Positions 2,583-57,116 of a DNA stretch of 64,000 bases are shown one piece after another. The first letter of the stretch is position 1; each line of letters starts with the position of its first letter. The translations under genes were made by a program, and so were the position numbers. The notes under the pieces are model-generated. The model saw only the letters and a program-made list of their open reading frames with translations. It was not told the origin of the DNA and did not search any database. Location of the stretch: NCBI GenBank assembly GCA_016185755.1, contig JACPMX010000016.1, forward strand, positions 985-64,984, given 5' to 3'. The DNA comes from Candidatus Woesearchaeota archaeon (lineage in GTDB: Archaea; Nanobdellota; Nanobdellia; Woesearchaeales; GW2011-AR4).

Positions 2583-4301
2583 ATGACGGTAAAAATGAAA
2601 GACAAGCTGCAGAAAGTGATTCATCATCTGCCAAAAACTATGCAGAAAATAGCACTTTCCTATTATAATTCCATTGGATTCAGGAAAAGCCACGCATCAA
2701 GGACGCTGCAGCTGGAGTTCCCGATAAAAAGCAAAGACGGCTCGTTCCTATTCCACAAGCCGCTTTTCGGCAACGGGACAAGCCAGGGCTACTTTACCCA
2801 ATATTACAGGGAGCCGGAGATCCCGCAGGTATTCCTGACTGTAGAGGACAGGCTGTCATTAAAGACGGAAACCCTAAAAGGAAGACTATACCAAAAAAAT
2901 AAAAAAGCCAAAAAAAGCATAAAATCAGAATGTATATTGCCGGTTTCTTTGGTAAAAAAAGGATTTGAGGGAAGCTATATCGATAATGACGCCTTGATAC
3001 AGCTCAAAATCAACGGCAAAAAAACGGACCTGAAGGGGCTTGCAATAAACAGATTTCATTACCTGCCTGTACAAGGCAATTCAAAAATAGAATTGTCTTC
3101 CAGCCATGATTTCATTGCCGGTGACGAGCTGGGAAAAAGACAAGGCAAAAAGCACAAGAAGAAGCTTGTGCTGGTTTTATTTATAGACGGCTTTGCAGCG
3201 GAAATCCTTAAAAAATCCCATCTCAAGGACATGATGCCGCACACCTATAGGTTCTTCAGCAAAGGGATAATGTTCAACAACTGCTATTCATCCTCAAAAT
3301 GGACATTGCCAAATCTTGCTTCCATGTTTTCCGGAAAATATGCAAAAAAACACGGCATTTTCCACCCCAGCAAAGAGATAGAGCTGGGAAAGAATTACCC
3401 TGTCATCAGCAATTATTTCCAGGATGACGGCTACCTGACCCTTCATGTGGAGGGCGGATGGCGATTAACCCCCTCTTACGGCTACTGCAAGGGATTTGAC
3501 CGGACAATCTACAAGAAAAACATGCAGGAAAGCGAAATATTGGCAGCCCTTTTTGAGCATATAAGCGCATTTAAGGAAAGAGATAACTTTGCATGGCTCT
3601 CATTCATGGACCTGCACCATGACATGAACCTGCTTCCCGACATAGACATACAGGCGGAAACTCCGATAATGTACCATAGCTACGGCCCGTCAAAAATAAA
3701 ATCTGCGCTGATAAAAAGCTTTGACGAGAAAAAAACATACAAATACGCGAAAAAACTCACTAACATTGATTTTGACCTAAAAAGGATTTATGACTACCTA
3801 GAGGATAATTATAGCAATGACGAGATGCTGGTCGTGCTTGTTTCTGATCACGGCCAGGGATATATACAGGACTCAAAAACAACATTGTCCAAAACAAGGA
3901 CGCACGTCCCCCTAATGGTCAGGGGATGCAAAAATAAAAATACAGGCAGCGACGAGATAGTTTCCAACATGGACCTGCTTCCGATATTGCTGCACCTCTC
4001 GGGAATTCCCTATGACAATGGCAGTTTTGATGGAACTCTTCCAAAGATATTCGGCGGCGAGGGCAGGGAATACGCCATTACAGAGACTATCTACCCTGGA
4101 GAGCCCTACACAGCCGCGATTACCGATGCAGAAAATGAATTTTATTTTGAGACAGAAGCAAATGCCGATGACAGCGGCAATGTAAACGCAAATAAATTCA
4201 AAATTCAGATGATAAACTCTAAGGACGGAAATGATGCAACAGAAAAAAACCCGGAAAAAGCCATGGAGTACAAAAAAATAATTCTAAAGCACATAAGATA
4301 G
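2583..4301 (+). CDS. Type I phosphodiesterase / nucleotide pyrophosphatase family protein (alkaline phosphatase superfamily)
   Basis: LVLVLFIDGF...SSKWTLPNLASMFSGKYAKKHGIF matches the PF01663 core (DG..., PSVTFPNH..TG..P..HGI). A later VLVSDHGQGY matches the AP-superfamily DHG metal site. Confidence 0.6.
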   Translation: MTVKMKDKLQKVIHHLPKTMQKIALSYYNSIGFRKSHASRTLQLEFPIKSKDGSFLFHKPLFGNGTSQGYFTQYYREPEIPQVFLTVEDRLSLKTETLKGRLYQKNKKAKKSIKSECILPVSLVKKGFEGSYIDNDALIQLKINGKKTDLKGLAINRFHYLPVQGNSKIELSSSHDFIAGDELGKRQGKKHKKKLVLVLFIDGFAAEILKKSHLKDMMPHTYRFFSKGIMFNNCYSSSKWTLPNLASMFSGKYAKKHGIFHPSKEIELGKNYPVISNYFQDDGYLTLHVEGGWRLTPSYGYCKGFDRTIYKKNMQESEILAALFEHISAFKERDNFAWLSFMDLHHDMNLLPDIDIQAETPIMYHSYGPSKIKSALIKSFDEKKTYKYAKKLTNIDFDLKRIYDYLEDNYSNDEMLVVLVSDHGQGYIQDSKTTLSKTRTHVPLMVRGCKNKNTGSDEIVSNMDLLPILLHLSGIPYDNGSFDGTLPKIFGGEGREYAITETIYPGEPYTAAITDAENEFYFETEANADDSGNVNANKFKIQMINSKDGNDATEKNPEKAMEYKKIILKHIR

Positions 4302-4362
4302 ATCAGCAAACAGGATTCCGCACTGCTTACATCTTGAATAAAAATACATTAAAATAGAAACC

Positions 4363-4370
4363 TTTATATA
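4363..4370 (+). promoter_or_regulatory. TATA-like box (TTTATATA) upstream of the wHTH/PK-like gene
   Basis: AT-rich octamer about 45 nt upstream of the ATG at 4414. It resembles archaeal TATA boxes; the TSS is unknown. Confidence 0.3.
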
Positions 4371-4376
4371 CTAATA

Positions 4377-4409
4377 TTATTCACTTTTTTATTATAATTA
4401 TTCACTTTT
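4377..4409 (+). promoter_or_regulatory. Direct repeat TTATTCACTTTT x2 (4377-4388 and 4398-4409; 21-bp spacing) just upstream of the ATG at 4414. It is a candidate operator.
   Basis: Two exact 12-mers on the same face of the helix between the TATA-like box and the start codon of a gene encoding a DNA-binding (wHTH) protein. Confidence 0.35.
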
Positions 4410-4413
4410 AAGA

Positions 4414-5826
4414 ATGAGCAACAAATCCAGAGTCTTTGAGTTCCTGTACAGGAACAGCGGCAGCAGGTACAATATCAACCAGATCTCAAGGCTGACTGGC
4501 ATAAGCGTGGGAAGCGCCTTCAAGATCCTGAAAAATCTCGAAAAGGACAACTATGCAAACGCAGAGAAAAGAAACAATTCATTATTATACCAAATCAACC
4601 AAAACGGCCAAACAAAAGATGCTTTTGAGGATATTGAGGAGGAAAAAAGAAGCAAAAACCTGAAGAAAACAAAAATTATATGCACCCTGGGGAAATCTTC
4701 CGAAAGCGGGCCCCTGATTGGGAAATTAATTGAGAAGGGGATGGATGCTGCAAAGATAGACTCCTCCTTTTATGATGAAAAAGGCTCAGCAGGGATAATC
4801 AAAAAAATAAGGGAGATATCGGACCAGATACCAATAATTCTTGACATTTCAAAAAACAGCGAGATAAAGCCATGGGCAAGGGCTGCTATGGAGAACGACA
4901 TTGATTTTATCATAGTCTCAATAAAGAATGCAGATGATATAAGGAGAATAAACCGGCTCCTTGGCTACAGCGACATGAAGCAGGTCATCGGAGAAAAAAT
5001 CAAGGTGCTTGCGCGCCTGGTGGCAGAAAACCTGGGGAACCACAGGGAAATAATAGAAGAAGCTTATGGAGTTGTGGTGGACCGAGACTCGCTTGTAAAG
5101 GGCAAAAGATATGAGATGCTTCCTTTAATGCAGAAGATGATAATAGAAGAATGCAACAAGCAGGGCAAGCCCGCTATAATTTCCGGGCAGGTGCTAAAAT
5201 CAATGGCCGGCAAAAACTTCCCGGAGGCAACTGAAGTTTACAGCATAACCAACATGGTTCTTGACGGGGCTTCCTGCATAATGCTTTCCGGCGAAACCGG
5301 AGCGGGAAATTACCCGGAAGAATCCGTGGCTGCATTATCCAGGATTATCAAGGGGGTGGAGTCAGGCCTGTCAGAAAATTACATTGGGGCAATCCAGGAG
5401 GATTTTGTGCATTCCATAGGAAAAGCGGTATTAGAGGTTGAAAAAAACGCCAATATAGATGCCATACTAATCCTGACGTCTGGAGGCTATTCTGCAAGAA
5501 TGATATCCGGCAGAAGATTAAAATGCAAAGTCATAGCCGCGACATCCAGCAGGAAAATATCCAGGCAGCTCAATATATTGTGGGGAATAAGCCCGCTGCT
5601 TATCAAAGGCAACCTTGAGGACATATCCAGCCGGGAGAAAAAAGAGGCTGTAACCAATTCCCTGAAAAAAGGATTCATAAAAAAGAGCGACCGGATTGCC
5701 ATAGTAGCCTCAGTTTTTCACAGCAAGTCCAAGATAACAAATCTGCTGGAGATACACAAAGTTAACGAGTTTTTGGATTATCTAGATGGCAAGAGCAATG
5801 GCAGGCTAATCACAGAGGTGCGATAA
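4414..5826 (+). CDS. Winged-HTH domain fused to a pyruvate-kinase-like TIM barrel lacking the B (lid) domain; C-terminal PK-like domain present
   Basis: The N-terminal 60 aa resemble MarR/TrmB-like wHTH (ISRLTGISVGSAFKILKNLEKDNY). KIICTLG...ILDISKNSEIKP parallels PK KIVCTIGP...ILLDTKGPEIRT, and LDGASCIMLSGETGAGNYPEESV parallels PK DGTDAVMLSGETAKGKYP. RLNFSHG is replaced by KIDSSFY, and the sequence jumps from the TKGPEIR-equivalent straight to the IDFI block, so the lid is missing. Confidence 0.55.
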   Translation: MSNKSRVFEFLYRNSGSRYNINQISRLTGISVGSAFKILKNLEKDNYANAEKRNNSLLYQINQNGQTKDAFEDIEEEKRSKNLKKTKIICTLGKSSESGPLIGKLIEKGMDAAKIDSSFYDEKGSAGIIKKIREISDQIPIILDISKNSEIKPWARAAMENDIDFIIVSIKNADDIRRINRLLGYSDMKQVIGEKIKVLARLVAENLGNHREIIEEAYGVVVDRDSLVKGKRYEMLPLMQKMIIEECNKQGKPAIISGQVLKSMAGKNFPEATEVYSITNMVLDGASCIMLSGETGAGNYPEESVAALSRIIKGVESGLSENYIGAIQEDFVHSIGKAVLEVEKNANIDAILILTSGGYSARMISGRRLKCKVIAATSSRKISRQLNILWGISPLLIKGNLEDISSREKKEAVTNSLKKGFIKKSDRIAIVASVFHSKSKITNLLEIHKVNEFLDYLDGKSNGRLITEVR

Positions 5827-5827
5827 A

Positions 5828-6898
5828 ATGGCATATTTCCATGAAGCAGCGCTGATAGACAGCACAGATGACATGCAGTTCAAGATATACAGCAGCACGC
5901 ACCCGAAAGGATTTATCATAGCAAAGCCAAAATACATACCAAGCGAGCTGCTTAATCTGGCCGGACTGAAGAAAAGATTTCTTTTCAGCAGGTGCATGTA
6001 CCGCTTCAACCTTTTTAATGATAAGAAGATAGTGGGGAAAAACCTGGAAGAACTAAGGAAAAAATTCCCGGAATGCGTCTATGAATGCAGGAAGCACAAA
6101 AACTGGTTTCTTGGAGTCCCGGAAAAAAAAGTGAAAAAATTCTACGATACTAGAAAAGGACTGCAGGAACTGCTGAAAGTGCCTGTGGAGGACCTTGACA
6201 GCTACTTAAAGGCTGTGAGAAAAATGATAGACATCCTTGCCGAAGCCGGAATAAAATCAAAAGACCTCGGGATTAGCCATTCAACTTTGCTGGGGAACTA
6301 TACCCCGGGAAAATCCGACATAGACATATTGATTTTCGGCATGGGCAACGGCTGGAAAGCTGTTAAGCACCTGGAAAAATGCAAAGATCCTTCATTAAGC
6401 TGGAAATCCAAGGAAGGCTGGGCCAAATATTACAAAGACAGGGTTGTTTCCAAGGTTTACACTGAAAAGGAATATGTCGCGAACATGGTCAGGAAAAAAG
6501 ACGACGGATTTATTGACGGCAACGTATTCTCGCTCTTCTGCATTGAAAATGGGAATGAATCGTGGTATGACTGGGAAGAGGAGCACGAGCCTCTTGCAAC
6601 AGTGAAAATAAAAGCCAAAGTAAAGAATGCATATTATTCCATTGTAAGGCCCGGGTATTACGGGCTGGAAAACAGCAAAGTGCTCGAAGGCTATAAAGAT
6701 GTCCCTATAAAGCGCATTGTCACATGGGCAAGGCCCTTCAGCCTGCAGGCAAAAGAAAACGAGGAAATAGAAGCATGCGGCCTGCTTGAGAAAGTCAAGG
6801 CTGAAGACGGCGAGTTTTACCAGGTAGTGATAGGCTACTTTGATACATATACGACCGGCAGGGGTGAAAAAGAATACCTAAAAGCGTGTATAGACTAA
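5828..6898 (+). CDS. Pol-beta superfamily nucleotidyltransferase-fold protein (paralog A, intact hG[GS]...DhDh-like motif)
   Basis: LGISHSTLLGNYTPGKSDIDILIFG fits the minimal NTase / Cid1-like signature hG[GS]x9-13 DxD. The 356-aa protein has conserved N- and C-terminal extra domains (C-terminus YQVVIGYFDTY). Confidence 0.5.
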   Translation: MAYFHEAALIDSTDDMQFKIYSSTHPKGFIIAKPKYIPSELLNLAGLKKRFLFSRCMYRFNLFNDKKIVGKNLEELRKKFPECVYECRKHKNWFLGVPEKKVKKFYDTRKGLQELLKVPVEDLDSYLKAVRKMIDILAEAGIKSKDLGISHSTLLGNYTPGKSDIDILIFGMGNGWKAVKHLEKCKDPSLSWKSKEGWAKYYKDRVVSKVYTEKEYVANMVRKKDDGFIDGNVFSLFCIENGNESWYDWEEEHEPLATVKIKAKVKNAYYSIVRPGYYGLENSKVLEGYKDVPIKRIVTWARPFSLQAKENEEIEACGLLEKVKAEDGEFYQVVIGYFDTYTTGRGEKEYLKACID

Positions 6899-6899
6899 A

Positions 6900-7988
6900 A
6901 TGCACTTCTACGAATCATCAATAATAACAACAAAAGACGGGCTCCATTGCCAGGTTTACGGCAACGAGCATCCTGAAGGCAGGATACTAGTCAAGCCGAA
7001 GTACATACCGACTGACAGGATATCATGCGATTCCCTGCCTTACAGGTTCATCACCGGCCGGAAGATGAACAGGCTGAACCTCTGGATAGGCCAAAGCAAG
7101 CTTAAGAAATACTTTGATGATTTTGCCAAAGCATATCCCCGATATATATTCAAAAGCCCTGTCCATGAAAAAAGCCCCTTGTTTTTTGCCGTGCCCAAAG
7201 AATGCATTGAAAAAACTTATTCACCAAGGGAAGGGCTTGCAGAGCTCATGAGCATGCCTACAAGCCAGATGGACGACCATCTTAAGGCTGTCTTCGAGTT
7301 AATGTCCTTTCTGCTCACAAGCGGCCTTAAACTGGAGGATTTCGGCATTACCTACTCGACTTTGATGGGCCATTATTCCTCATACAAATCAGACATCAAC
7401 ATTGTTGTCTATGGAAAAAAGAAGTTCTGGCACCTGATGAAATTCCTGGAAAAAACCGGCAATAAGGAGCTGAGGTGGAAGACCTATGAGGAATGGGGGG
7501 AATTCTATAAGAAAAGGAACAGGCACATCATACACAAAAAGGAGAAATACATAGAAGACATGCACAGGAAGAGATCGGAAGGCTTCTTTAAAGGCATACT
7601 GTTTGTAATATTTGCAGTTGAAAACAAAGATGAAACATGGTTCAAATGGGGCGATGAAAAATATAAGAGAATAGGGGCAGCCAAATTTGAAGCTTTTGTA
7701 AAAGAAAATAAAGACTCAGTCGTAAGGCCCGGATGCTATATCATTTCCGATTCCAATTTCATAGGCGGGGATAGTTCATGCAGGGGAATACAAATAAGCA
7801 AAGCCGTCTTTTACTCAAGAGACTACTGCATGCTTGCATATCCGGGCGAGAAAATAGAGATAAGCGGGGTTGTCGAGGAAGTTGCCCGGAAATCGGGCGA
7901 AAAATATTACAGGGTAGTCGTTGGCTACTTTGACTCTTACCTAAGCGGAAGAAGAGATCAAGAATACATAAAAGTTACTGATGATTAA
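6900..7988 (+). CDS. Pol-beta nucleotidyltransferase-fold protein (paralog B; second carboxylate replaced, SDINIV)
   Basis: Colinear with 5828..6898 (KPKYIP, HLKAV, G-I-[ST]-x-STL-G-x-Y, C-terminal YRVVVGYFDSY), about 30-35% identity by eye. Motif is GITYSTLMGHYSSYKSDINIVVYG, with D to N at the second metal ligand. Separated from paralog A by 1 nt. Confidence 0.5.
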   Translation: MHFYESSIITTKDGLHCQVYGNEHPEGRILVKPKYIPTDRISCDSLPYRFITGRKMNRLNLWIGQSKLKKYFDDFAKAYPRYIFKSPVHEKSPLFFAVPKECIEKTYSPREGLAELMSMPTSQMDDHLKAVFELMSFLLTSGLKLEDFGITYSTLMGHYSSYKSDINIVVYGKKKFWHLMKFLEKTGNKELRWKTYEEWGEFYKKRNRHIIHKKEKYIEDMHRKRSEGFFKGILFVIFAVENKDETWFKWGDEKYKRIGAAKFEAFVKENKDSVVRPGCYIISDSNFIGGDSSCRGIQISKAVFYSRDYCMLAYPGEKIEISGVVEEVARKSGEKYYRVVVGYFDSYLSGRRDQEYIKVTDD

Positions 7989-8610
7989 GATGAGCAAAAG
8001 CGAGATTAAAAAACTGCTTGACGAAGATGCAAGCCTTAAGGATGGCTGCAATCTATGCAATGAATCTAAATTCACATCAGGATACGATACAGGATACGGA
8101 ATAATCGTCTACAAGAACGGAACTTTAAAGAACGGCTGGTTCGCAACCCTGTCACCAAAAACCGGCGGGGACCCGGAACACGATTTCACAGTCCAGCTGA
8201 TGCCATGCCTGCATTTGACACATTTCTCACAGATAGCCCCGCATAAGGGCATGATGGAGAATTATGGTGTTGCATTTTCAAGAATTTGCATGGCAATCTC
8301 AGCTGTTTTAATGCAGGAAGAAGGGCTGAAGGCCGGCACTGAAGAAAAAAAGCTGTCCATGCCTTTGGCGACATACGGAAAGAGCACAACATGGAAAAAA
8401 AAGAAGGAGCATCTTCACTTAAAGATTTTCCCGTTTCGCGGGAATATCGGGCAGCCGTATACTGTGGACAGCTCTTTCGGCAAAAAAGAGATTTTTATGG
8501 ACAGCAAGAAGACGGAATTCGTGAAAATGGCGCCTGTGAAGAAAAAGAAACTAAGCAGAGCCAGACTTGGCTACCTGGCAAAAAGGCTGATATCCCTGCT
8601 TGAAAGATAA
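7981..8610 (+). CDS. Atypical HIT-superfamily protein (histidine triad HLHLK variant with about 50-aa insertion)
   Basis: N-terminal CxxC (DGCNLCNE) and ...EHLHLKIFP in the position of the HIT motif H-phi-H-phi-H-phi-phi (third His replaced by Lys). Loosely like GalT/Ap4A-phosphorylase branch proteins. The start may be ATG 7981 (overlapping upstream stop) or ATG 7990. Confidence 0.4.
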   Translation: MIKMSKSEIKKLLDEDASLKDGCNLCNESKFTSGYDTGYGIIVYKNGTLKNGWFATLSPKTGGDPEHDFTVQLMPCLHLTHFSQIAPHKGMMENYGVAFSRICMAISAVLMQEEGLKAGTEEKKLSMPLATYGKSTTWKKKKEHLHLKIFPFRGNIGQPYTVDSSFGKKEIFMDSKKTEFVKMAPVKKKKLSRARLGYLAKRLISLLER

Positions 8611-8611
8611 T

Positions 8612-9490
8612 ATGGCAAAAAAAATAGACTTGCAGTCCCACACTACAGCTTCAGACGGCGAACTGGCTCCCGAAGAGCTGGTTGACCTGGCAATAGAAAA
8701 AGGGCTGAGCGCAATCGCAATAACAGACCACGATTCCGTGGCATCGCTGAAGGCTGCAATTGAGCATTCCAAAGGCAAAAATATTGAAATAGTTACAGGC
8801 GTAGAATTAAGCTGCGACGATCCCATACTAAATTACGACAAAATAGACGTGCTAGGCCTTTTTATAGACCCAAAAAACAAAAAGCTGATGGAATCAATTA
8901 AAAAAATAAACAGGAAAAGGGATGATAACAAAAAGAGGATAATAGGGAAATTAAAAAGCCTCGGCTACGAAATTGAGTATGAAGAAGTCAAAAAAACAGC
9001 CAAAGGGACTTTCGGCAGGCCCCATATTGCAAAATACCTGCTGAAAAAATACCCCTCGGAATTCAGCTCTGTTGCCGACGTTTTCGACAAGCTGATAGGC
9101 ACAGGCAAAAAAGCATTTGTGGGGACCCATGACAGGGTTTCCATCAAGGATGCCGTAAAGACAATAAAAGGCGCTGGCGGCATTTCCATACTGGCTCATC
9201 CGGGAATATACACCAAGGAAGATTCAATCAGGATTATTGATTATTTTATTGACAAAGGAGGCGAGGGAATTGAGACATATTATCCCTACCACATCATATG
9301 CCCGGAGCTTAATGTTGATAAAGAAGGCAATGAAAAAATAATAGGCTTCTACAAAAAAATCGCAAAATCAAAAAGAATACTTGAAAGCGGCGGCAACGAC
9401 CACCACGGCAATTACAGGTTTACTTTGGGAGCTGTTGAAATCCCATACGAAGTTTTGGAAAACCTTAGGAACAGGAAACCTGCCCTGTAG
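8612..9490 (+). CDS. PHP-domain metal-dependent phosphoesterase (TrpH/YciV-like)
   Basis: KIDLQSHTTASDGELAPEELV...AIAITDHDSV is the canonical PHP N-terminal His/Asp motif. Further His-rich motifs (ILAHPG, GGNDHHG) follow. Confidence 0.75.
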   Translation: MAKKIDLQSHTTASDGELAPEELVDLAIEKGLSAIAITDHDSVASLKAAIEHSKGKNIEIVTGVELSCDDPILNYDKIDVLGLFIDPKNKKLMESIKKINRKRDDNKKRIIGKLKSLGYEIEYEEVKKTAKGTFGRPHIAKYLLKKYPSEFSSVADVFDKLIGTGKKAFVGTHDRVSIKDAVKTIKGAGGISILAHPGIYTKEDSIRIIDYFIDKGGEGIETYYPYHIICPELNVDKEGNEKIIGFYKKIAKSKRILESGGNDHHGNYRFTLGAVEIPYEVLENLRNRKPAL

Positions 9491-9499
9491 GCAAACAAA

Positions 9500-10036
9500 A
9501 TGGCAAAATCAGCATGGACTATCTGGTTTGTAGGGCTGCACGGCTCTGGAAAATCAACCATATCAAAAAAAACAGCTGAGATTCTGAGGAAAAAAAACGT
9601 GCCTGTAGTAATTCTTGACGGCGATGAATTAAGGGAAGCAATATCATCCGACCTGGGCTACAGCATAGAAGACAGGGACGAGCACATGAAAAGGACAGCA
9701 GACTTGTGCCGCATAATTTCAGGAAACGGAATACTCTGCATAGCATGCGTTGCATCCCCAACTGAAAAATCCAGGGAATACGCCAAAAAAATGCTCGGAA
9801 AAATAATCATAGTCTATGCCAAATGCCCCCTTGAAGTATGCGAAAAAAGGGATGTCAAGGGGCATTACAGGAAGGCAAGGAACAAAGAAAAGGGATTTGA
9901 AGATTTTTTAGGAATATCCTTGCCTTTCGAAGAGCCAAAGAATGCAGATATAATCCTCAACACTGATAAGGAAAGCGCTGAAGATTCTGTGAGCAGGCTT
10001 CTTAAAAAATTGGCGGAAATGAAGGCAATTGAATGA
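9500..10036 (+). CDS. cysC: Adenylylsulfate (APS) kinase
   Basis: P-loop GLHGSGKST, LDGDELR (CysC LDGDNVR), and KCPLEVCEKRDVKGHYRKAR (CysC CPLEVCEARDPKGLYKKAR). 178 aa. Confidence 0.85.
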   Translation: MAKSAWTIWFVGLHGSGKSTISKKTAEILRKKNVPVVILDGDELREAISSDLGYSIEDRDEHMKRTADLCRIISGNGILCIACVASPTEKSREYAKKMLGKIIIVYAKCPLEVCEKRDVKGHYRKARNKEKGFEDFLGISLPFEEPKNADIILNTDKESAEDSVSRLLKKLAEMKAIE

Positions 10037-17237: not shown

Positions 17238-18008
17238 ATGGAGAAAATAAGGATAATAGCCAGGCTGGATGTCAAGGGCCCCAATGTCATCAAAGGGGTG
17301 AATCTCGAAGCCTTGAGGGTGGTTGGAAAGCCGGAAAAGATGGCTGAAGATTATTACAGGCAGGGGGCAGACGAGCTGATATACATAGACATTGTTGCAA
17401 GCCTTTATGGGAGGCAAAATCTCCTTAACATAGTGAACCTGACATCTGACAAGATATTCATACCATTCACTGTTGGCGGCGGGGTAAGGACTCTTGATGA
17501 CATAAGCCTGTTCTTAAAAGCAGGAGCAGACAAGGTGGCAATAAATACTGCAATAACCAAAAACCCGGATTTAATAACGAAAGCTTCAAGGATGTTCGGG
17601 TCGCAATGCATCGTTGCTTCTATAGAGGCAAAAAAGGCACCAGAAAATAAATGGGAGGCATACACTGAAAATGGAAGGGAAAAAACAGGCCTTGATGTGG
17701 TAAAATGGGCAAAGAAAGTGGAAAAACTCGGGGCAGGAGAGATACTCCTGACGTCCATAGACAAAGAAGGCACCAAAAAAGGATTTGATATCGAGCTCAT
17801 AAAGCAGGTTTCTGAAGCTGTTTCTGTCCCGTTGATCGTATGCGGCGGCGCAGGCAATGCCGGCCACATCGTTGAATGCATTGAAAGCGGAAACATCGAT
17901 GCAGTGGCAGTTTCCTCAATTCTTCATTACGGGACATCGACTATCGGCGAGATTAAGAATCACCTTGCCAAGAGTGGAATTAGCGTGAGAAAAAATGCAA
18001 AATTATGA
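17238..18008 (+). CDS. HisF-like cyclase subunit (imidazole glycerol phosphate synthase family) of the glycan-cluster WbuZ type
   Basis: RIIARLDVKG...VVGKPEKMAEDYYRQGADELIYIDI...GGGVRTLDD is the HisF (beta/alpha)8 signature. It is located in a sugar cluster next to the HisH-like gene and the PP-loop amidotransferase, not in a his operon. Confidence 0.8.
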   Translation: MEKIRIIARLDVKGPNVIKGVNLEALRVVGKPEKMAEDYYRQGADELIYIDIVASLYGRQNLLNIVNLTSDKIFIPFTVGGGVRTLDDISLFLKAGADKVAINTAITKNPDLITKASRMFGSQCIVASIEAKKAPENKWEAYTENGREKTGLDVVKWAKKVEKLGAGEILLTSIDKEGTKKGFDIELIKQVSEAVSVPLIVCGGAGNAGHIVECIESGNIDAVAVSSILHYGTSTIGEIKNHLAKSGISVRKNAKL

Positions 18009-18657
18009 AATTCCGGATGTAAGCATAATTGATTACGGAATAAACAATCTCAAGAGTGTAAACATTGCATTCCAAAGCATAGGAAGAACCGCGAAAATAA
18101 TTGACGCTCCCGAGGACGTACAATCGGCAAAATGCCTTGTATTGCCGGGGATAGGCGCATTTCACAGCGCCATGGAAAACCTCAGGAAAAAATCCCTGAC
18201 AGAGCCAATCAGGCAAAAAGTCAAAGACGGAACCCCAATTTTAGGGATATGCCTGGGGATGCAGCTGCTGTTCTCTGAAAGCGAGGAGTTCGGGCTGCAC
18301 AAGGGGCTCGGCCTGGTTCCGGGAAGAGTCATACCATTCAAATCGCCAAAGGAAATTAATATAAAGGGCTATAAAGTACCGCATATAGGCTGGAGCGAGC
18401 TGATATTCCAAAAAAACAGTGTCAAAAATACGCTGCTTGAGAACCTGCCGGAACAATGCGAGGTTTATTTTGTGCATTCATACTTCCCCAAGGCTGATGA
18501 TGCAGGCACTGTATTGGCGACTGCCAAATACGGCGGCCAGGAATTTTGCGCAATAGTCAAAAAAGGCAATATCACGGGAACCCAGTTTCACCCTGAGAAA
18601 AGCGGGGAAATAGGGCTGAGCATGCTAAGGACATTTTGCAATCAAAATTGCAGATGA
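17995..18657 (+). CDS. HisH-like class-I glutamine amidotransferase subunit (WbuY type)
   Basis: IIDYGINNLKSV...VLPGIGAF...GICLGMQLL (Cys nucleophile)...HSY...FHPEKS. Overlaps the upstream gene by 14 nt. Confidence 0.8.
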   Translation: MQNYEIPDVSIIDYGINNLKSVNIAFQSIGRTAKIIDAPEDVQSAKCLVLPGIGAFHSAMENLRKKSLTEPIRQKVKDGTPILGICLGMQLLFSESEEFGLHKGLGLVPGRVIPFKSPKEINIKGYKVPHIGWSELIFQKNSVKNTLLENLPEQCEVYFVHSYFPKADDAGTVLATAKYGGQEFCAIVKKGNITGTQFHPEKSGEIGLSMLRTFCNQNCR

Positions 18658-19892
18658 TTATAAAAGGCGCTGAAATGGTTTCTAAAAAAATACTGGACAG
18701 GCAACTGCCGGATCTGCCCCAAGAGATAAAATTCTGCAGAAAATGCGTGGTTTCCAACCAGCGCCCAAGGATAATTCTTGACGAGGAAGGCGTTTGCAGC
18801 GCGTGCAGGTTTGCATACGAGAAGGAGCATGCCATAGACTGGAAAGAAAGAGAAGACCTGCTTAGGAAACTATGCGACAAGTACAGGAGAAATGACGGAA
18901 GATTTGACATTGTCGTGCCCTCAAGCGGAGGCAAAGACTCGTCAGCAGTCGCGCACAAGCTAAAGCACAAGTATGGGATGCACCCTTTGACAATTACATG
19001 GGCTCCTTTGGACTACACCCCTATAGGCTGGCAGAATTTCAGGAACTTTACAAAGTCAGGATTTAACAATCTCTTATTCACGCAAAATGGCAAGCTGCTT
19101 GCAAAGCTGGCCAGGCTGGCTTTCGAGGCGGTAGGGGACGTTTTCCTTCCGTTCATATACGGCCAGACGTCTTTTGCCTTCCACGTGGCTTTGATGATGG
19201 ACATCAAGCTTGTATTTTTCGGCGAGAACCCGGAAGCGGAATACGGAGGCTCCTTGAAGTACAAGGACAAGCCGGGCATACCGATCAAAGACTGGGCAGA
19301 TACATATTATAAGGGAGTCACTGTGGACGACCTCGTAAAATACGGGCTTGAAGAAACGGATTATTTTACAAAAGACGATTATGACGAATGCGACCTTACA
19401 TTTTACAGGCCCCCTCCCTTGGAAGAATTGGAAAAAAAGGACATACAGTTCCACTGGTTTGGCTTTTATGAAAAATGGGTGCCGCAGGAAAATTATTATC
19501 ATGCCGCTGAAAATACCGGGTTCCAGCCCAATCCGGAAGGAAGGTCGGAAGGCACATATTCAAAGTATGCAAGCCTTGACGACAAATGGGATCCCTTCCA
19601 TTTTTACTTCTCATTCATAAAATTTGGAATCGGAAGGGCGACATCGGACGCATCCCACGAGATAAGGGACGGCCATATAACAAGGGAAGAAGGGACTGCA
19701 TTAGTAAAGAAATTTGACTCGGAGTTCCCTAAAAAGCATTTTAAGGAGTTCCTGGCTTTTATTGGCATGGATGAGGGGCAGTTTTGGAAAACAGTTGACA
19801 AGTTCAGGACAAGCCATATATGGAAAAAAGAAAACGGGGAATGGAAGCTAAGAAAAGCTGTTTATGACGAAGCAATCAGCATCTCCCGATGA
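18636..19892 (+). CDS. N-acetyl sugar amidotransferase (PP-loop ATP pyrophosphatase, WbuX/PseA-like; acetamidino-forming)
   Basis: N-terminal CxxC...CxxC zinc ribbon (CRKCVVSN...CSAC) then the PP-loop VVPSSGGKDSSAV. Characteristic partner of HisH/HisF-like pairs in LPS/glycan loci. The start may be Met 18675. Confidence 0.8.
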   Translation: MQSKLQMIIKGAEMVSKKILDRQLPDLPQEIKFCRKCVVSNQRPRIILDEEGVCSACRFAYEKEHAIDWKEREDLLRKLCDKYRRNDGRFDIVVPSSGGKDSSAVAHKLKHKYGMHPLTITWAPLDYTPIGWQNFRNFTKSGFNNLLFTQNGKLLAKLARLAFEAVGDVFLPFIYGQTSFAFHVALMMDIKLVFFGENPEAEYGGSLKYKDKPGIPIKDWADTYYKGVTVDDLVKYGLEETDYFTKDDYDECDLTFYRPPPLEELEKKDIQFHWFGFYEKWVPQENYYHAAENTGFQPNPEGRSEGTYSKYASLDDKWDPFHFYFSFIKFGIGRATSDASHEIRDGHITREEGTALVKKFDSEFPKKHFKEFLAFIGMDEGQFWKTVDKFRTSHIWKKENGEWKLRKAVYDEAISISR

Positions 19893-31693: not shown

Positions 31694-32579
31694 GAAAAGC
31701 AGGCAGGCAAGGTCTTTTAAGGAGCGGGCCAAAAAATACATCCCGCTGAGCATCCAGAAGCGGCTGTACAGCATAATAAAAAAAGCAAGGCACATAAAAA
31801 ACATAAAGTCAGGAAGGGTAATAACAAAAAAACACCTTCAGAACGCTTTTAGGCAGGCAGGCCTGAAGAGCGGAAATATTGTACTTGTACATTCTTCCCT
31901 TGGCAGGATAGGGCATGTGGAGAACGGGCCCGAAACTGTAATTGATGCATTGCTTGAGATAATCGGAAAAAGCGGGCTGCTTGTCATGCCGGGATTTTCA
32001 GCGCTGAATTACGACAAAAAGCGCAATATGTACGTATTTGATGTGCAAGACACCCCAACTTACACGGGAGCAATTCCGGAAGCTTTCAGAAAAAGAAACG
32101 GGGTGAAAAGAAGCATGTCCCCTACGCATTCATTGTGCGCTTTTGGAAAAAATGCCGGCAAGCTTATAGAAGGCCACGACAAGGTTGACAACCCATTCGC
32201 GATGAACGGCCCTTTTGGAAAGCTTTACAGGTGGAAGGCCAAGATAATGCTGCTTGGGGTTGACCACCTTGCAAACTCCTCCCTTCACATAGTGGAGGAC
32301 AAGCCTTATTTTCCTGTCAAAGTTTTCACCGAGAAATTCAGAGTCCTGATGAAGGACAATGGGAAAGAGAAAATAATAGAAGCCAGAAGGCATACTGACC
32401 ACTCAAGAAAAACAAGAGACCCGAACATAATGGAAAAATACTGCCTTAGGCACAAAGCAATGAAAATCCTTAAAATCGGCAACACAGAGCTAAGGGTGAT
32501 AGACATAAAGAAATTCGTCGATATGATGGACGGGCTTTGCAAAAGAGGCATAACAATCTATCCCGCAGGCATTAAATGA
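31680..32579 (+). CDS. AAC(3)-family (aminoglycoside 3-N-acetyltransferase fold, PF02522) acyltransferase in glycan context
   Basis: IVLVHSSLGRIGHVENGPETVIDALLEIIGKSGLLVMPGF...SMSPTHSLCAFGKNA parallels AAC(3) VHSSL..G.v.GG...vi.al...lG..GTLvmPt...S. Overlaps the wecB stop by 14 nt. Confidence 0.6.
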   Translation: MGKIEKSRQARSFKERAKKYIPLSIQKRLYSIIKKARHIKNIKSGRVITKKHLQNAFRQAGLKSGNIVLVHSSLGRIGHVENGPETVIDALLEIIGKSGLLVMPGFSALNYDKKRNMYVFDVQDTPTYTGAIPEAFRKRNGVKRSMSPTHSLCAFGKNAGKLIEGHDKVDNPFAMNGPFGKLYRWKAKIMLLGVDHLANSSLHIVEDKPYFPVKVFTEKFRVLMKDNGKEKIIEARRHTDHSRKTRDPNIMEKYCLRHKAMKILKIGNTELRVIDIKKFVDMMDGLCKRGITIYPAGIK

Positions 32580-33738
32580 TTTTTCTGTGCATTCCAGGCT
32601 TTGATTCCAGCATAAGTGAGTCCACAAAGAACTTGGCAGCCCAGTTTATGAAGCAGAAGGGGGCGTACCAGCCGTATATGGGGAACGCCCCTGGAATTCC
32701 CCCCCTAATCCCTTTATTGAGAGATTTCATATTCTGCACCCTTTTCATGTAATTGTTGCTTTTTTTTGCAGCAATCAAAAATTTTTCATCTTTTGTTTCT
32801 ATGAATAATTTTTGCCATATTATTGACATCTGGGCGTTCCCGGTCAAGCAGGACCATCTTACGCTGCTTTTCCAGCCTTTGCCAAAGCTCCCCGGAAGAG
32901 AGCCGTCTTTTCTTTGCGCATCAAGCAAGGCTGTTGCTGCCTTTTTTGCCGAGTCTATGTATCTTTTTTTCCCTAAGCAAATCCCTGACTCAAGAATGCC
33001 CCTTATTGAATATGCAATGGTGTGCACCAAAGGCTCCTGCCCGGGATAAAAGGCGTTGTTTTGCAGCCATCCGCTTTCCTGCTGCTGCGTTAAAGCCCAG
33101 TCTATATTTTTTTCAGCCGCTTTTTTGAATTCTGCATTTTTTGCCAGGCTATAAGCCATTAAAAGCCCCCACGCCGTCCTGGCATTGTATGTATGCACAT
33201 GATTAAGGTACTCGTGCTTTCTCCAGCACCCGTCTTTGTCCATGACTGACACAAGCCAGCAGGCCGCCTTTTCAGCGGCTTTTTTATATTCCTCCTTTTT
33301 TGATTCCTCATAGGCCCTGCAAAGCCCGAAAATCACCTGGCCTGTATTGAAGACAACGGGAACATTTTTTGTTCCTGCACCTGGGAAGGCCCCGGAAGGA
33401 AGCTGGCTCCTTAACTCAAAATCCGCCATCTCAAATGCCTTTTTTCTATAAACCGGATTTTTTGAAAAAACCGCATAATTAAAAAAAGTAGGTATGATGT
33501 AGCCGGTTGTCTCTATGTAGGAATGCGCCCACCCGTCAAACAAGGAGTAAAGGGCGCTTACACCCCCATCATTATTTTGCTCCTGAGCATAAGACAGCCA
33601 TTCCATTGCAGCCTTAATGTGGGAATTGTTTGAGAGCGTTTTATTATAGGCCCGAAAGCAATCCTTAACAGAAAGAGATGAAAGATAATAGAAATTCCTT
33701 GGGTTAATCCCCTTTATAAAATATTTTAAGTATCTCAT
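32572..33738 (-). CDS. (alpha/alpha)6-barrel protein (AGE / six-hairpin-like or terpenoid-cyclase-like repeats); function uncertain
   Basis: Repeated aromatic/Gly-rich hairpin motifs (NNDGGVSALY, DKDGCWRKHEY, QRKDGSLPGSFGKGW) typical of toroid folds. No catalytic assignment possible. Confidence 0.35.
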   Translation of the reverse strand: MRYLKYFIKGINPRNFYYLSSLSVKDCFRAYNKTLSNNSHIKAAMEWLSYAQEQNNDGGVSALYSLFDGWAHSYIETTGYIIPTFFNYAVFSKNPVYRKKAFEMADFELRSQLPSGAFPGAGTKNVPVVFNTGQVIFGLCRAYEESKKEEYKKAAEKAACWLVSVMDKDGCWRKHEYLNHVHTYNARTAWGLLMAYSLAKNAEFKKAAEKNIDWALTQQQESGWLQNNAFYPGQEPLVHTIAYSIRGILESGICLGKKRYIDSAKKAATALLDAQRKDGSLPGSFGKGWKSSVRWSCLTGNAQMSIIWQKLFIETKDEKFLIAAKKSNNYMKRVQNMKSLNKGIRGGIPGAFPIYGWYAPFCFINWAAKFFVDSLMLESKPGMHRKII

Positions 33739-35592: not shown

Positions 35593-36885
35593 TCAGCTTC
35601 TCCCAATTCCATGGTAAAGGATCCCCATTGACTTGATTCTCTCCTTGTCAAGGCAGTTCCTGCCGTCGATGACGACAAGGATTTTATGCTTCTTTAGCTT
35701 TTCCAGGCCCATTTCCTTGAATTCTCTGTGGTCTGTCACTAAAATTATATAGTCTGATTTATTCAGCAATTCATCCAAGTCCTTTACATTGCCTCCATTT
35801 TTGACATGAGGGTCAAAAACAAAGACTTCTGCGCCTTTCGTCTTAAGCACATTTATGACTTCAAATGCGGGGCTTTCTCTTGTGTCATCGACATTTGCCT
35901 TGTATGCAAGCCCGAGAACCCCCACTTTCGCGCCTTTTAGGGCTTTTTTTATTTTTTTCAGCTCATTCTCAAGAAGCTCGACGGTATAATGCGGCATGTA
36001 ATTATTTATTTTACGGGCCAGCTTTAGGAATTCATGATTGAAACCAAGCTGCTTTCCTCTTTCTATCATGTAATAAGGGTCCTGGGCGATGCAGTGCCCG
36101 CCCACCCCTGCACCAGGGTAATGCGGCATAAAAGCAAAAGGCTTTGTTGAAGCGACCTGAATCACTTCCATTATGTCAATCCCGGCTTTGTCGAAACTTT
36201 GCGCCATTTCATTCACAAATGCAATATTTACGTCTCTGAATGTGTTCTCTATTATCTTGGTCGCTTCTGCAGTCTTCAAATTGCTTACTTCAGTAACGCT
36301 TGCATCTATAATAGACCTATAGAATTCAGCAGCTTTTTCAGCAGCTTCTTTTGTTATGCCTCCAACCACTCTCGGCAGATTGTTGACTTTAAACTGCTTG
36401 TTGCCCGGGTCGATCCTTTCAGGGCAATGCGCGACCAGAACATCATTCCTGTAAGCGTCAAATTTCTGCTTTTTCAATATAGGCAAAACAATTTCCTCTA
36501 TTGTTCCTGGATAAATTGTTGACTCTATAATCAAAAGGGTTCCCGGCTTTATAAATTTTGAAATTGTCGATGCAGAATTCATGACTGCAGTCAAGTCTGG
36601 GGAATTGTTCCTGTCAACAGGCGTTGGAACGCAGACAATCACAACATCAGAGTTTGGGATGCACTCATTTGGATCAGCGGTTGCATGTATCCTGTTCCTG
36701 AGGCTTTTTAATTTGCCTACTATATATTCATCATCAATCGGGCTGGTTTGCCTGTTTACAGAATCGACTTTGTTTTTGTCAACGTCAAAGCCATAAACCT
36801 TAAGGCCCTTCTCGGCGCAAAGGCAGGCAAGAGGCAGCCCCACATAGCCCAGTCCCACTATTGTTACTGACACCATCAAAGCCAA
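35593..36885 (-). CDS. Nucleotide-sugar dehydrogenase (UDP-ManNAc/UDP-GlcNAc 6-dehydrogenase, WecC/WbpA-like)
   Basis: VTIVGLGYVGLPLA...GGHCI (catalytic Cys)... UDPG_MGDP_dh N, central and C-terminal domains. Confidence 0.85.
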   Translation of the reverse strand: MALMVSVTIVGLGYVGLPLACLCAEKGLKVYGFDVDKNKVDSVNRQTSPIDDEYIVGKLKSLRNRIHATADPNECIPNSDVVIVCVPTPVDRNNSPDLTAVMNSASTISKFIKPGTLLIIESTIYPGTIEEIVLPILKKQKFDAYRNDVLVAHCPERIDPGNKQFKVNNLPRVVGGITKEAAEKAAEFYRSIIDASVTEVSNLKTAEATKIIENTFRDVNIAFVNEMAQSFDKAGIDIMEVIQVASTKPFAFMPHYPGAGVGGHCIAQDPYYMIERGKQLGFNHEFLKLARKINNYMPHYTVELLENELKKIKKALKGAKVGVLGLAYKANVDDTRESPAFEVINVLKTKGAEVFVFDPHVKNGGNVKDLDELLNKSDYIILVTDHREFKEMGLEKLKKHKILVVIDGRNCLDKERIKSMGILYHGIGRS

Positions 36886-50496: not shown

Positions 50497-50836
50497 CAAC
50501 GGGCAAAAGGAAATTGCAGCATTCTCTTCCATTATCCTATTGGCATGCCTTATTTTCTCATTTGTGCTTTTTGGCATTGCAGGCGTAAGGGTTGTTTTTG
50601 GGATAGTGCTTGTGTCATTGCCATTTTACCTTATTTTAAACAATTTCGAGTTTAACGAATCAGAAAAATTTGTATTTTCAATCCTGCTGGGGCTTACAGT
50701 ATTCCCCTTGCTTGCCTATCTGCTGGGATTCATCACAAGCTTCAAATGGGCAATAGCAATAACTTTTGTTCTGTTGATGGCTGCAGCATTCATGCCGAAG
50801 ATGAAGAAATTAATTATTTCTTATGGGAAAGTATAA
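50486..50836 (+). CDS. Small 3-4 TM membrane protein (paralog of 52164..52520), coupled to the upstream GT-C-like gene
   Basis: TTG start overlapping the stop of 48883..50496. Hydrophobic segments; the C-terminal half resembles that of 52164..52520 (GLTVFPLLAYLLGF / GIAVSLAVAGIASYYLGVFG). Confidence 0.4.
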   Translation: MKISNGQKEIAAFSSIILLACLIFSFVLFGIAGVRVVFGIVLVSLPFYLILNNFEFNESEKFVFSILLGLTVFPLLAYLLGFITSFKWAIAITFVLLMAAAFMPKMKKLIISYGKV

Positions 50837-50988
50837 ATACTAGCTTTAACAGGAAATTTTTGGGGGTGTAAAATTTGCTTTTAAGAATAGGTGTTAGCCT
50901 GTTTTATTGTACGTAAAGTTCTTTTTTCCAAATAGCATATTCTCCGTCAGAAAAACTTTTATAATTTCTGAAACTTTGAGGTGATTTT

Positions 50989-51228
50989 ATGTACTCTGTA
51001 AGGCAAATCATAAAGGAAAACTGGAAATCTTATCTTAAAACACATAGCCCTACAGCCCATCAAAAAGAAGAAATTCAGAAGATGATTGACTGCTCAAAGA
51101 ATAGCTGCAACAGCAGGATATGCAGCTCCTGCGGGAAAAGATATGCTGACGATTGGGCAAACAATCTTGTAAACGCCTATGCCCGCTTCCATGCAAGGCA
51201 TGTGGTTTTGACAACCCCTTCTTTCTAA
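50989..51228 (+). pseudogene. Truncated IS91-family transposase (N-terminal zinc-binding domain fragment only)
   Basis: SCNSRICSSCGKRYADDWANNL...HARHVVLTTPSF parallels IS91 TnpA SCRNRHCPRCQGLRRAQWL...YFHVVFTLP. The ORF stops after 79 aa where full-length TnpA is about 400 aa. Confidence 0.5.
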
Positions 51229-54141: not shown

Positions 54142-54142
54142 T

Positions 54143-57113: not shown

Positions 57114-57116
57114 TTT

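Follow-up and report, generated by a model that had tools for sequence, protein, structure and literature searches.

An approximately 50-kb glycan locus on a Candidatus Woesearchaeota contig holds seven co-directional ORFs at positions 2583-10036 of the window (the whole 64-kb stretch of DNA analysed here), which raises the question of what these genes do together in such a place. The ORFs are present exactly as the initial annotation described them, and two suggestions had been attached to them: (a) PAPS supply and recycling, and (b) nucleotide signalling or modification. On balance we favour, by a modest preference, a model in which the seven genes are an operon dedicated to activating sulfate and recycling PAPS for the sulfation of a cell-surface glycan, with a three-part DPANN-specific module instead of Sat/CysDN.

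The first gene and the predicted operon regulator

The first gene, g1 (2583..4301, + strand), encodes a cytoplasmic alkaline-phosphatase-superfamily (AP) protein of sulfatase fold. It had been read as NPP-type, and a Thr nucleophile in a W-T-L-P-N context and a Phosphodiest match of 53.8 bits speak for that reading; the best stretch of this match, however, covers profile positions 1-64 only, and the Sulfatase model (94 bits) fits g1 better than the Phosphodiest (NPP) model, so that g1 is not a clear NPP. The T-L-P-N-L of g1 aligns with the S/C-T-P-S-R of solved S1 sulfatases. Compared with the sulfatase motif C/S-x-P-x-R, W-T-L-P-N-L places Thr at the formylglycine position and Leu at that of Arg, and a type I (formylglycine) sulfatase was rejected on the missing motif despite the 94-bit match. 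Cluster c13, to which the homologs of g1 belong, is represented in 14 cassette loci. In 40 loci the place of g1 is filled by another AP family, c2 (Phosphodiest), which forms a fusion with NT-A (g3, below) in 7. We regard g1 as an accessory member and a candidate transferase or phosphodiesterase; any part in glycan sulfation would be as the transferase.

The g2-g7 unit is preceded by its promoter and operator region (4363..4409, + strand), in which a TATA-like TTTATATA (4363-4370) comes first and ATTATTCACTTTT then occurs in two identical copies, at 4376-4388 and 4397-4409, 21 nt apart. These are the sole matches to ATTATTCACTTTT in the 64-kb window, where 0.38 are expected, and at least two matches arose in 7 of 100 shuffles. 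The same TATA box and two ATTCACTT(T) repeats also lie upstream of the orthologous wHTH-PK genes of loci L006, L008, L009 and L063. The gene that follows, g2 (4414..5826, + strand), encodes a winged-helix DNA-binding domain joined to an A+C domain of pyruvate-kinase origin, and here the wHTH-PK-like fusion claimed earlier was recovered by Pfam (PK, PK_C and weak MarR_2/HTH_24). It is no pyruvate kinase: it scores 205 bits with TIGR01064, where the cut-off is 306, and in an alignment of six orthologs with E. coli PykF the B (lid) domain is absent and the equivalents of K220, E222, D246, R32, D66 and T67 vary. The wHTH-PK gene lies directly upstream of NT-A in 6 loci. The earlier statement that all seven proteins act on phospho-bonds does not hold for g2, which, its catalytic residues not being conserved, is instead predicted to be a wHTH regulator of the operon with a degenerate, ligand-sensing PK domain. 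As repressor or activator, it would use its N-terminal domain to bind the ATTCACTTTT repeats of the operator while the dead PK domain senses a metabolite.

The nucleotidyltransferase pair, its HIT-fold partner and the downstream enzymes

The two NTase-fold paralogs named in the initial annotation are borne out. Both g3 (NT-A; 5828..6898, + strand), a Pol-beta-type nucleotidyltransferase, and its paralog g4 (NT-B; 6900..7988, + strand), 36% identical to it, belong to the Pol-beta-like superfamily as defined by hG[GS]x9-13 D-h-[DE]-h and a third carboxylate on an alpha-beta-alpha-beta-alpha-beta NTase core. NT-A, in which the N-terminal domain is a beta domain and the C-terminal one is OB-like, keeps the D-x-D of the fold (its HS...SD-I-D motif is intact) and is 50-84% identical across phyla. 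In NT-B the second metal-binding Asp has become Asn, giving D-x-N (S-D-I-N) in every ortholog. NT-A is predicted to be the catalytic adenylyltransferase subunit and NT-B a non-catalytic partner that couples it to the HIT protein. In Thermoproteales, remote homologs that match NT-A over its full length (100-150 bits) stand beside CitG and methanofuran/H4MPT genes, which suggests a family of small-molecule phosphodiester-forming NTases. The known pair of CitG with a CitX/MdcG-type protein combines a triphosphoribosyl transferase with an NTase-fold phosphoribosyl-transferase; the archaeal homologs beside CitG are remote in sequence from the cassette proteins and single-copy, and have neither HIT, PHP or APS kinase partners nor a glycan context.

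The third component, g5 (7981..8610, + strand), is a HIT-fold protein with CxxC and HxHxK, and is indeed atypical, as had been noted. It has the alpha+beta fold of HIT proteins, but H-L-H-L-K-I-F stands in place of the histidine triad, so that both H-phi-H-phi-H-phi-phi and the GalT/Apa form H-phi-H-phi-Q are excluded by the Lys at the third position, a residue kept in 58 of 59 HIT members. At the sequence level g5 matched no HIT family and no PDB chain, and in comparison with the known HIT transferases and phosphorylases (the Ap4A phosphorylases Rv2613c and Apa1/2, APS:phosphate adenylyltransferase, GalT, Fhit) it has about 60 additional residues and is an obligate partner of NT-B, to which it may also be fused. 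The profile searches that had been proposed gave no curated housekeeping family in Pfam or NCBIfam for g3, g4 or g5, nor any ATP-sulfurylase match. We predict that g5 is the adenylyl-transfer component of the sulfate-activating step.

The PHP phosphoesterase and the APS kinase of the initial annotation were both recovered by profile searches. The former, g6 (8600..9490, + strand), is of the TrpH/Cv1693 type and scores 53 bits with Pfam PHP (cut-off 26.4); its best NCBIfam match is NF041577, 3',5'-nucleoside bisphosphate phosphatase (151 bits, below the cut-off of 400), RNase RNM follows at 145 bits (below 375), and its PDB relatives are 9etk, 7ug9 and 2yb1 (E 1e-23 to 1e-26). From these matches g6 is predicted to be a 3',5'-bisphosphate (pAp) phosphatase, a role supported by the fusion of PHP to APS kinase in L041 and L048; in other loci HD or CysQ-type proteins replace it. 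The latter, g7 (9500..10036, + strand), reaches 162.7 bits with TIGR00455 (cut-off 138.7) and carries the GSGKST, LDGD and VASP motifs of an APS kinase (CysC). Among the cassette loci 21 carry this gene, in most of them directly after PHP on the same strand. When g7 was aligned with the other cassette APS kinases and E. coli CysC, a cassette-specific subtype emerged in which GLSGSGK, EN and KGLY have become GLHGSGK, EH (EH-MKR) and KGHY, the change from EN to EH falling at the phosphosulfate-binding position of canonical enzymes. APS is the predicted acceptor of g7.

Recurrence of the cassette and its exchange with ATP sulfurylase

NT-A, NT-B, the HIT-fold protein, PHP and APS kinase recur in about 70 DPANN species, always in a glycan context, so that the synteny asked about in the initial annotation is real and extends to fusions: NT-B~HIT (L011, L012, L016, L019, L023, L027, L060), AP-family~NT-A, HD~NT-A, PHP~APS kinase and CysQ~APS kinase. 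In 7 loci a ProRS-like gene, with scores mostly below the equivalog cut-off, takes the place of HIT or of NT-B and HIT.

Two readings that set sulfation aside draw on these same features. The order of the HD(SpoT-like)~NTase fusion recalls RelA/SpoT, several hydrolases accompany one synthetase, and the operon is headed by a DNA-binding protein (wHTH-PK here, an RHH-like 80-aa protein elsewhere), as might be expected of a second-messenger or modification system in which the NTase pair synthesises, HIT, PHP, HD and NPP-like proteins degrade and wHTH or RHH proteins act as effectors; this reading, suggestion (b) above, found no specific support and we consider it very improbable. Alternatively the NT pair, the PHP protein (RNase AM-like), HIT and the ProRS-like protein might act on tRNA or RNA ends and sit in a glycan locus incidentally, given that NT-A has in its OB-like domain a likeness to SSB domains and to the anticodon-binding domains of aaRS, that g6 also matches RNase RNM/AM and that the ProRS-like gene lies inside the cassette. 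The constancy of the glycan context, the fusions that link the cassette to AP-family enzymes, CysQ and APS kinase, the distant homologs in cofactor-biosynthesis clusters, the mostly sub-threshold ProRS-like scores and the lack of a match to curated tRNA-modification families all argue against this, and it can be given next to no credence.

The composition of the loci points elsewhere. No canonical ATP sulfurylase was found in the 1.42 Mb of cassette loci, and tblastn with the DPANN Sat domain gave no match in the window or the cassette loci. Other DPANN carry, instead of the NT cassette, a PK~ATP-sulfurylase(~APS-kinase) fusion. Its sulfotransferase neighbours are orthologous to those of the cassette, and it occupies the same slot, with Methyltransf_21 on one side and the Wzx flippase on the other; no NT or HIT genes were present in the PK~Sat loci tested. 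The counts behind this displacement are small, the reverse search from the sulfotransferase giving 2 PK~Sat and 3 NT neighbours, with 3 further PK~Sat contexts. Because Sat is absent from the cassette loci and exchanges position with the module, we propose that NT-A/NT-B/HIT has taken over from ATP sulfurylase as a non-orthologous replacement, an interpretation from genomic context that we think slightly more probable than its opposite. The claim is one of working like an ATP sulfurylase, not of being one, as membership in the Sat family (PF01747 with PUA_2; (Q/H)xRNxxHxxH, GRDH(A/T)G) was rejected for want of homology. Furthermore, the PK domain of the PK~Sat fusion is active, whereas that of the cassette is separate, catalytically degenerate and part of a DNA-binding regulator.

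It could be argued that NT, HIT and PHP are accessory to sulfation, removing pAp, APS, ApnA or PPi or salvaging AMP, with APS supplied by a Sat elsewhere in the genome. APS and ApnA are typical substrates of HIT enzymes, which degrade or phosphorolyse them, and PHP, HD and CysQ all belong to the hydrolases. In about half of the full-flank cassette loci neither APS kinase nor sulfotransferase lies within 10 kb, so that Sat might be distant too; PK~Sat loci, too, often have no APS kinase nearby. We nevertheless find such a housekeeping role decidedly unlikely: in equivalent places no NT-cassette locus has Sat and no tested PK~Sat locus has NT or HIT, the complete synthetic active site of NT-A is very strongly conserved, and salvage does not account for an obligatory catalytic/pseudo-catalytic NTase pair.

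A proposed route to PAPS

In the sulfate-activation model NT-A/NT-B would consume ATP and release PPi, and the adenylyl group would pass to sulfate either directly or, as we think likelier, via an AMP-histidine on the HIT protein, which NT-B would dock onto NT-A, giving APS. The g7 kinase would then convert APS to PAPS, a transferase would sulfate the lipid-linked glycan, and g6 would hydrolyse the by-product pAp. No recognisable sulfotransferase lies in the 64-kb window, where g1 is the candidate; elsewhere the transferase may be a Sulfotransfer_2, CDP-alcohol-transferase-like or Phosphodiest-family protein. Suggestion (a) thus survives in outline, favoured by the APS kinase, the PHP~APS kinase and CysQ~APS kinase fusions, the sulfotransferase neighbours and the PK~Sat slot, but not in its details: it left out the NT-A/NT-B pair, and a HIT protein acting alone as sulfurylase is not evident when that protein cannot be separated from the pair, to which it is often fused. 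The canonical PAPS pathway (Sat/CysDN, CysC, sulfotransferase, CysQ/PHP) shares with the cassette its logic and partners, namely APS kinase, pAp-phosphatase-type enzymes, sulfotransferases and a context of Wzx and glycosyltransferases. Unlike it, the cassette has no PUA_2/ATP-sulfurylase or CysD/CysN homolog, and its presumed activating step is a Pol-beta NTase heterodimer with an HxHxK HIT protein, folds unrelated to Sat/CysDN.

The same genes could make a PAPS-like donor that carries no sulfate, a 3'-phospho-nucleoside-diphospho-X or 3'-phospho-NMP-X. NT-A would nucleotidylate a small molecule that bears a phosphate or hydroxy group, the CysC-like kinase would add the 3'-phosphate, a CDP-alcohol-transferase-like or Thr-nucleophile AP enzyme would move the (phospho-)X to the glycan, and PHP would take the 3'-phosphate off the leftover pNp. 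There is a parallel in the O-methyl-phosphoramidate (MeOPN) pathway of Campylobacter jejuni (Cj1415-Cj1418), which makes CDP-phosphoramidate 3'-phosphate, a capsule-modifying donor, by means of the CysC homolog Cj1415, a precedent for CysC homologs accepting other nucleotides (PMC11800397); there too a PAPS-like donor is the joint product of a nucleotidyltransferase and a CysC-type 3'-kinase encoded in a glycan locus (PMC11800397). The His substitutions near the phosphosulfate site, the missing sulfotransferase match in the window, the pairing of type-I loci with a CDP-OH_P_transf-like membrane protein and of type-II loci with Thr-nucleophile AP enzymes, both classic phospho-group transferases, and the phosphodiesters that distant NT homologs probably form in cofactor synthesis would all suit such a donor. 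Against it, g7 scores above the curated APS-kinase cut-off, the recurrent partners are bona fide sulfotransferases and CysQ, the cassette and canonical ATP sulfurylase alternate beside the same sulfotransferase ortholog in the same slot, the CDP-OH_P_transf-like gene also adjoins canonical PK~Sat, and no conserved cassette gene (glutamine kinase, amidotransferase etc.) would provide a distinct X. The cassette differs from MeOPN also in having no glutamine kinase, amidohydrolase or MobA-type cytidylyltransferase and in its NTase fold family, and a MeOPN-type pathway was rejected for the island, where the CysC-like kinase alone is present and GATase and PEP-utiliser genes are absent. We therefore consider a non-sulfate donor unlikely. 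Further along the window, a HisH-like GATase at 17995-18657 is part of a HisF/PP-loop amidotransferase trio.

Several points sit uneasily with the sulfate-activation model. The use of three proteins for a one-step reaction counts against a sulfurylase, and the replacement by ProRS-like genes is not predicted by a simple sulfurylase model. Genes of the PHP, HD and AP families go with the NT cassette, whereas the PK~Sat loci seen lack them; they may therefore serve NT chemistry rather than pAp recycling. The change from EN to EH in the cassette APS kinases, the lack of a recognisable sulfotransferase in the window and the half or so of the full-flank loci with neither APS kinase nor sulfotransferase within 10 kb count against the model as well.

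Finally, we raise more tentatively, and at somewhat less than even confidence, the idea that NT-A/NT-B and the HxHxK HIT protein together make up a third class of enzyme for sulfate activation, an adenylyl relay in which ATP would yield AMP-His on the HIT protein with release of PPi before AMP passes to sulfate, and which displaced PK~ATP-sulfurylase in many DPANN. If true, this class would be evolutionarily unrelated to both Sat and CysDN, and the Thr-nucleophile AP-family proteins (g1/c2) may be new kinds of glycan or lipid sulfotransferase or coupling enzyme, as may the variant CDP-alcohol-transferase-like membrane protein.

A conserved cassette in archaeal glycan loci

In the window, which is DNA of a Candidatus Woesearchaeota archaeon (DPANN), seven co-directional ORFs had been claimed at 2583-10036 by the initial annotation, and they lie there on the plus strand. 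The first, g1 (sulfatase fold, AP superfamily), is separated by 112 nt from g2, a winged-helix/pyruvate-kinase-like gene (wHTH-PK), after which come the NTase-fold paralogs NT-A (g3, whose protein is identical to NCBI protein HYX08_07035) and NT-B (g4), a HIT protein (g5), a PHP phosphoesterase (g6) and an APS kinase (g7, APSK). From g2 to g7, neighbouring genes either overlap (8-11 nt) or have +1 to +9 nt between them, and the gene after g7 is convergent.

A pattern scan in which one genome stood for each GTDB species, with the ORFs then clustered by us, recovered 70 loci of a cassette usually ordered NT-A, NT-B, HIT, PHP and (APSK) in Woese-, Pace-, Nano-, Iain- and Aenigmatarchaeota, always with glycan genes as neighbours; the families come from 69 (NT), 46 (HIT), 42 (PHP), 21 (APSK), 14 (g1-like) and 6 (wHTH-PK) sources. 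Type 1 loci combine the cassette and APSK with a variant CDP-alcohol-phosphatidyltransferase-like membrane protein; type 2 loci read RHH, c2 (a second AP-superfamily cluster, Pfam Phosphodiest), cassette, c2; and in type 3 a SpoT-like HD protein replaces PHP and Sulfotransfer_2 is added. The window is of type 1, with wHTH-PK and g1 replacing the CDP-alcohol-transferase-like gene. Fusions, their partners identified with Pfam/NCBIfam, tie all components to one pathway: c2 to NT-A (four loci), c2 to HD and NT-A (three), HD to NT-A (one), NT-B to HIT (seven, one of them with an extra HAD domain), PHP to APSK (two) and CysQ to APSK (two); the fusions also link the PHP, HD and CysQ phosphatases to the APS-kinase/pAp cycle. 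That the cassette handles a signalling nucleotide is unlikely. With synteny conserved, the accidental association that the initial annotation had allowed for can be set aside, and the NTase-fold and HIT proteins do not fall into the housekeeping families that it had named as the other possible explanation.

In seven loci a ProRS-like class II aaRS gene lies inside the cassette, replacing HIT or NT-B and HIT (L047 12189-13499; L057 6222-7721; L062 11064-12311; L063 11084-12460; L064; L065 6823-8202; L069 11079-12422). It is probably a paralog rather than the housekeeping ProRS, because five members score 293-426 against TIGR00408, under the cut-off of 437, and another reaches just 438.

In all loci 18 kb or longer there is at least one of c2, a g1-like gene, a CDP-OH-like gene or a sulfotransferase. 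The c2 family occurs in 40 loci, often with an RHH-like gene of ~80 aa before it. The CDP-alcohol-phosphatidyltransferase-like gene follows APSK in type 1 loci (L008 14283-15137; L009 15111-15947; L044 15155-16021; about 10 others); its signature is altered to D-x2-N-G-x2-A-R-x8-G-x3-E-x3-H from D..DG..AR...G...D...D, and the protein may have a role in sulfating a lipid-linked acceptor. The product of g1 is cytoplasmic and matches Pfam Sulfatase at 94 bits. It cannot carry formylglycine, because Thr-Leu-Pro-Asn-Leu aligns to the (C/S)-x-P-x-R of solved S1 sulfatases, which rules out a sulfatase; by its residues it looks like a Thr-nucleophile enzyme of phospho- or sulfuryl-transfer. Candidate roles for the AP-family proteins are PPi hydrolysis, diester hydrolysis or a transfer step.

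Positional exchange with canonical ATP sulfurylase

Canonical ATP sulfurylase is absent from every cassette locus and from the window, as judged by tblastn of 1.42 Mb with a real DPANN Sat domain (motifs HTRNVIHKSH and GRDHTG) as query. An accessory nucleotide-housekeeping role, with Sat encoded elsewhere in the genome, would accommodate this result, and we give it a small share of belief. A reverse metagenome search seeded with the cassette-linked Sulfotransfer_2 family identified what stands in the same position: the immediate divergent neighbour is NT-A/NT-B in three loci (L087, L088, L091), and in two others (L089 3-1697, minus strand; L090 7696-9909, minus strand) it is a pyruvate-kinase/ATP-sulfurylase fusion (PK~Sat), a 737-aa protein of PK A+B, PUA_2 and ATP-sulfurylase domains with the PK catalytic residues intact and an apparently active PK part. 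Such fusions occur widely in DPANN, forming at least 120 clusters (named from Pace- and Nanoarchaeota); they measure 734-950 aa, have a PK part of A+B with no C domain, often carry a C-terminal APS kinase too, and are labelled 'sulfate adenylyltransferase' or 'pyruvate kinase' depending on the source; further examples are L096 10001-12727, L100 10001-12205 and L102 10001-12214. The order Sulfotransfer_1, Methyltransf_21, PK~Sat~APSK, Wzx (minus) of L096 mirrors Methyltransf_21, NT-A, NT-B, HIT, HD, Sulfotransfer_2 (minus), Wzx (minus) of L003, and PK~Sat adjoins a relative of the CDP-alcohol-phosphatidyltransferase-like protein (CDP-OH_P_transf) at L100 9160-9903 and a putative sulfotransferase in L102. 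No NT, HIT or PHP gene was present in any PK~Sat locus tested, and PHP, HD and AP genes go with the NT cassette, not with the PK~Sat loci seen. The NT cassette and PK~Sat are thus alternative modules that share their partners and occupy equivalent places, the hallmark of non-orthologous displacement, and the exchange also explains the presence of a PK-derived gene at the head of the window operon.

A model for sulfate activation

We propose a model in which NT-A, NT-B and HIT replace ATP sulfurylase in PAPS supply for glycan sulfation; we infer their substrate, product and relay from gene-level facts, and hold the sulfurylase role to be somewhat better than an even proposition. NT-A would consume ATP and release PPi as the catalytic member of a heterodimer with NT-B, and the adenylyl group would end on sulfate to give APS, probably through AMP-His146 on a HIT protein docked to NT-B, a relay suggested by the NT-B~HIT fusions and by HIT chemistry. 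PAPS would then be made by g7, a lipid-linked glycan sulfated by a transferase, pAp hydrolysed by g6, and the operon regulated by g2. As the motif ...HSTLLGNYTPGKSD-I-D... is kept in all NT-A orthologs and NT-B always has ...SD-I-N..., one subunit is predicted to be catalytic and the other pseudo-catalytic. Sequence searches of PDB chains with g3 and g5 gave no match. Among curated families g6 comes closest to 3′,5′-nucleoside-bisphosphate phosphatase, at a score below the cut-off, and in the PDB it is related to 9etk, 7ug9 and 2yb1; g7 exceeds the curated APS kinase cut-off and is of a cassette-specific subtype marked by three His substitutions. Some loci have, beside the main HIT gene and often on the other strand, a second HIT-like paralog that is divergent and likewise HxHxK (e.g. 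SQAHVHIKFDE) (L001 12147-12803, L024 12157-12792 and L026 12172-12786, all minus; L013 7949-8554).

An APS kinase homolog need not act on APS, and the cassette might instead make a PAPS-like non-sulfate donor, for which there is precedent in the Campylobacter MeOPN pathway, where CDP-phosphoramidate is 3′-phosphorylated by a CysC homolog (PMC11800397); we rate this a minority reading, at roughly one chance in five. Distant full-length NT-A homologs of 100-150 bits, from Thermoproteales, Korarchaeota and Methanococcus (L078 8001-9089 and 9076-10062, Vulcanisaeta; L081 6001-7104; L083 4976-8628), are located in methanofuran/H4MPT cofactor clusters, and a Vulcanisaeta homolog overlaps a CitG-family gene. 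These contexts argue for a small-molecule NTase family rather than tRNA enzymes; a tRNA-enzyme role, considered from the OB-like domain of NT-A, is disfavoured by context, and an RNA-processing role of the cassette is likewise unlikely. The Vulcanisaeta arrangement suggests a CitG and CitX/MdcG-like pair, for which the addition of hydroxyglutarate during methanopterin synthesis is a possible role. L083 has a tandem of three NTase paralogs, together with one ATP-grasp and one RHH/NikR gene.

The g2 protein consists of a winged helix and the pyruvate-kinase A and C domains, with the B (lid) domain deleted, and scores below curated PK thresholds. When six g2 orthologs were aligned with PykF, the equivalents of K220, E222, D246, R32 and D66/T67 were not conserved, which together with the missing lid rules out an ATP-regenerating pyruvate kinase. 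Upstream of g2, at window 4363-4409, a TATA-like TTTATATA is followed by an exactly repeated ATTATTCACTTTT, its two copies spaced by 21 nt, and four other loci share this layout 5′ of the orthologous gene (upstream of L006 1445, L008 8608, L009 8633 and L063 8601): TTTATA(T/A)A, then ATTCACTT(T) as a direct repeat with about 21 nt from one copy to the next, often with a GTGAAT-like inverted copy farther upstream. The wHTH domain may have its operator in these repeats, and the loss of domain and residues, with the conserved repeats, means that g2 is best read as a ligand-sensing regulator of the operon, not an enzyme.

Surface glycans and wider meaning

One large glycan locus spans window positions 1 to ~50.5 kb, with Wzx, two NeuB, CMP-NeuAc-synthetase-like, NeuC-like, PseB-like and DegT genes, many GT2, GT4, GT9 and PMT_2 genes, and radical-SAM and methyltransferase genes; no sulfotransferase is recognisable within the window. 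Three genes lying side by side, a HisF-like one (17238-18008), a HisH-like GATase (17995-18657) and one for a protein of 418 aa (18636-19892) with a PP-loop SGGKDS motif and no Pfam match, look like an amidotransferase set making acetamidino groups on (nonulosonic) sugars. Uronic-acid-type candidates lie at 32572-33738 and 35593-36885 (both minus); a 388-aa protein weakly matching the D-glucuronyl C5-epimerase C-terminus, Pec_lyase and GH88-type alpha/alpha-toroid families, near a UDP-glucose/GDP-mannose dehydrogenase gene, hints at uronic or iduronic acids, which are the sulfated residues of the Halobacterium N-glycan (PMC13308652). From 50000 to 64000, G+C falls from about 0.43 to 0.29-0.36, a composition unlike the glycan locus, and long minus-strand ORFs (1441, 770, 586 and 546 aa) occur.

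Searchable literature on DPANN sulfation, COG1665 and alternative ATP sulfurylases yielded no description of the cassette, nor was a paper on the PK~sulfurylase fusion found. Besides Sat and CysDN, no enzyme system is known to catalyse sulfate activation. The kind of pathway is known, as archaeal N-glycan sulfation is established in haloarchaea (PMC3892788, PMC13308652); the activating enzyme would be new. If true, an NTase/HIT route would exemplify non-orthologous displacement in textbook fashion and give biocatalysis a new enzyme with which to regenerate PAPS, and sulfur-assimilation and sulfation capacity in metagenomes would have to be scored differently, because cassette genomes now appear to have CysC without a sulfurylase. 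Two further curiosities concern PK: an apparently active one is joined to ATP sulfurylase, and a dead one would serve as a transcription-factor sensor with a conserved operator. The NTase/HIT reading would also mean that DPANN archaea, tiny as their genomes are, devote much to sulfating their surface glycans, structures that probably matter for attachment to a host.
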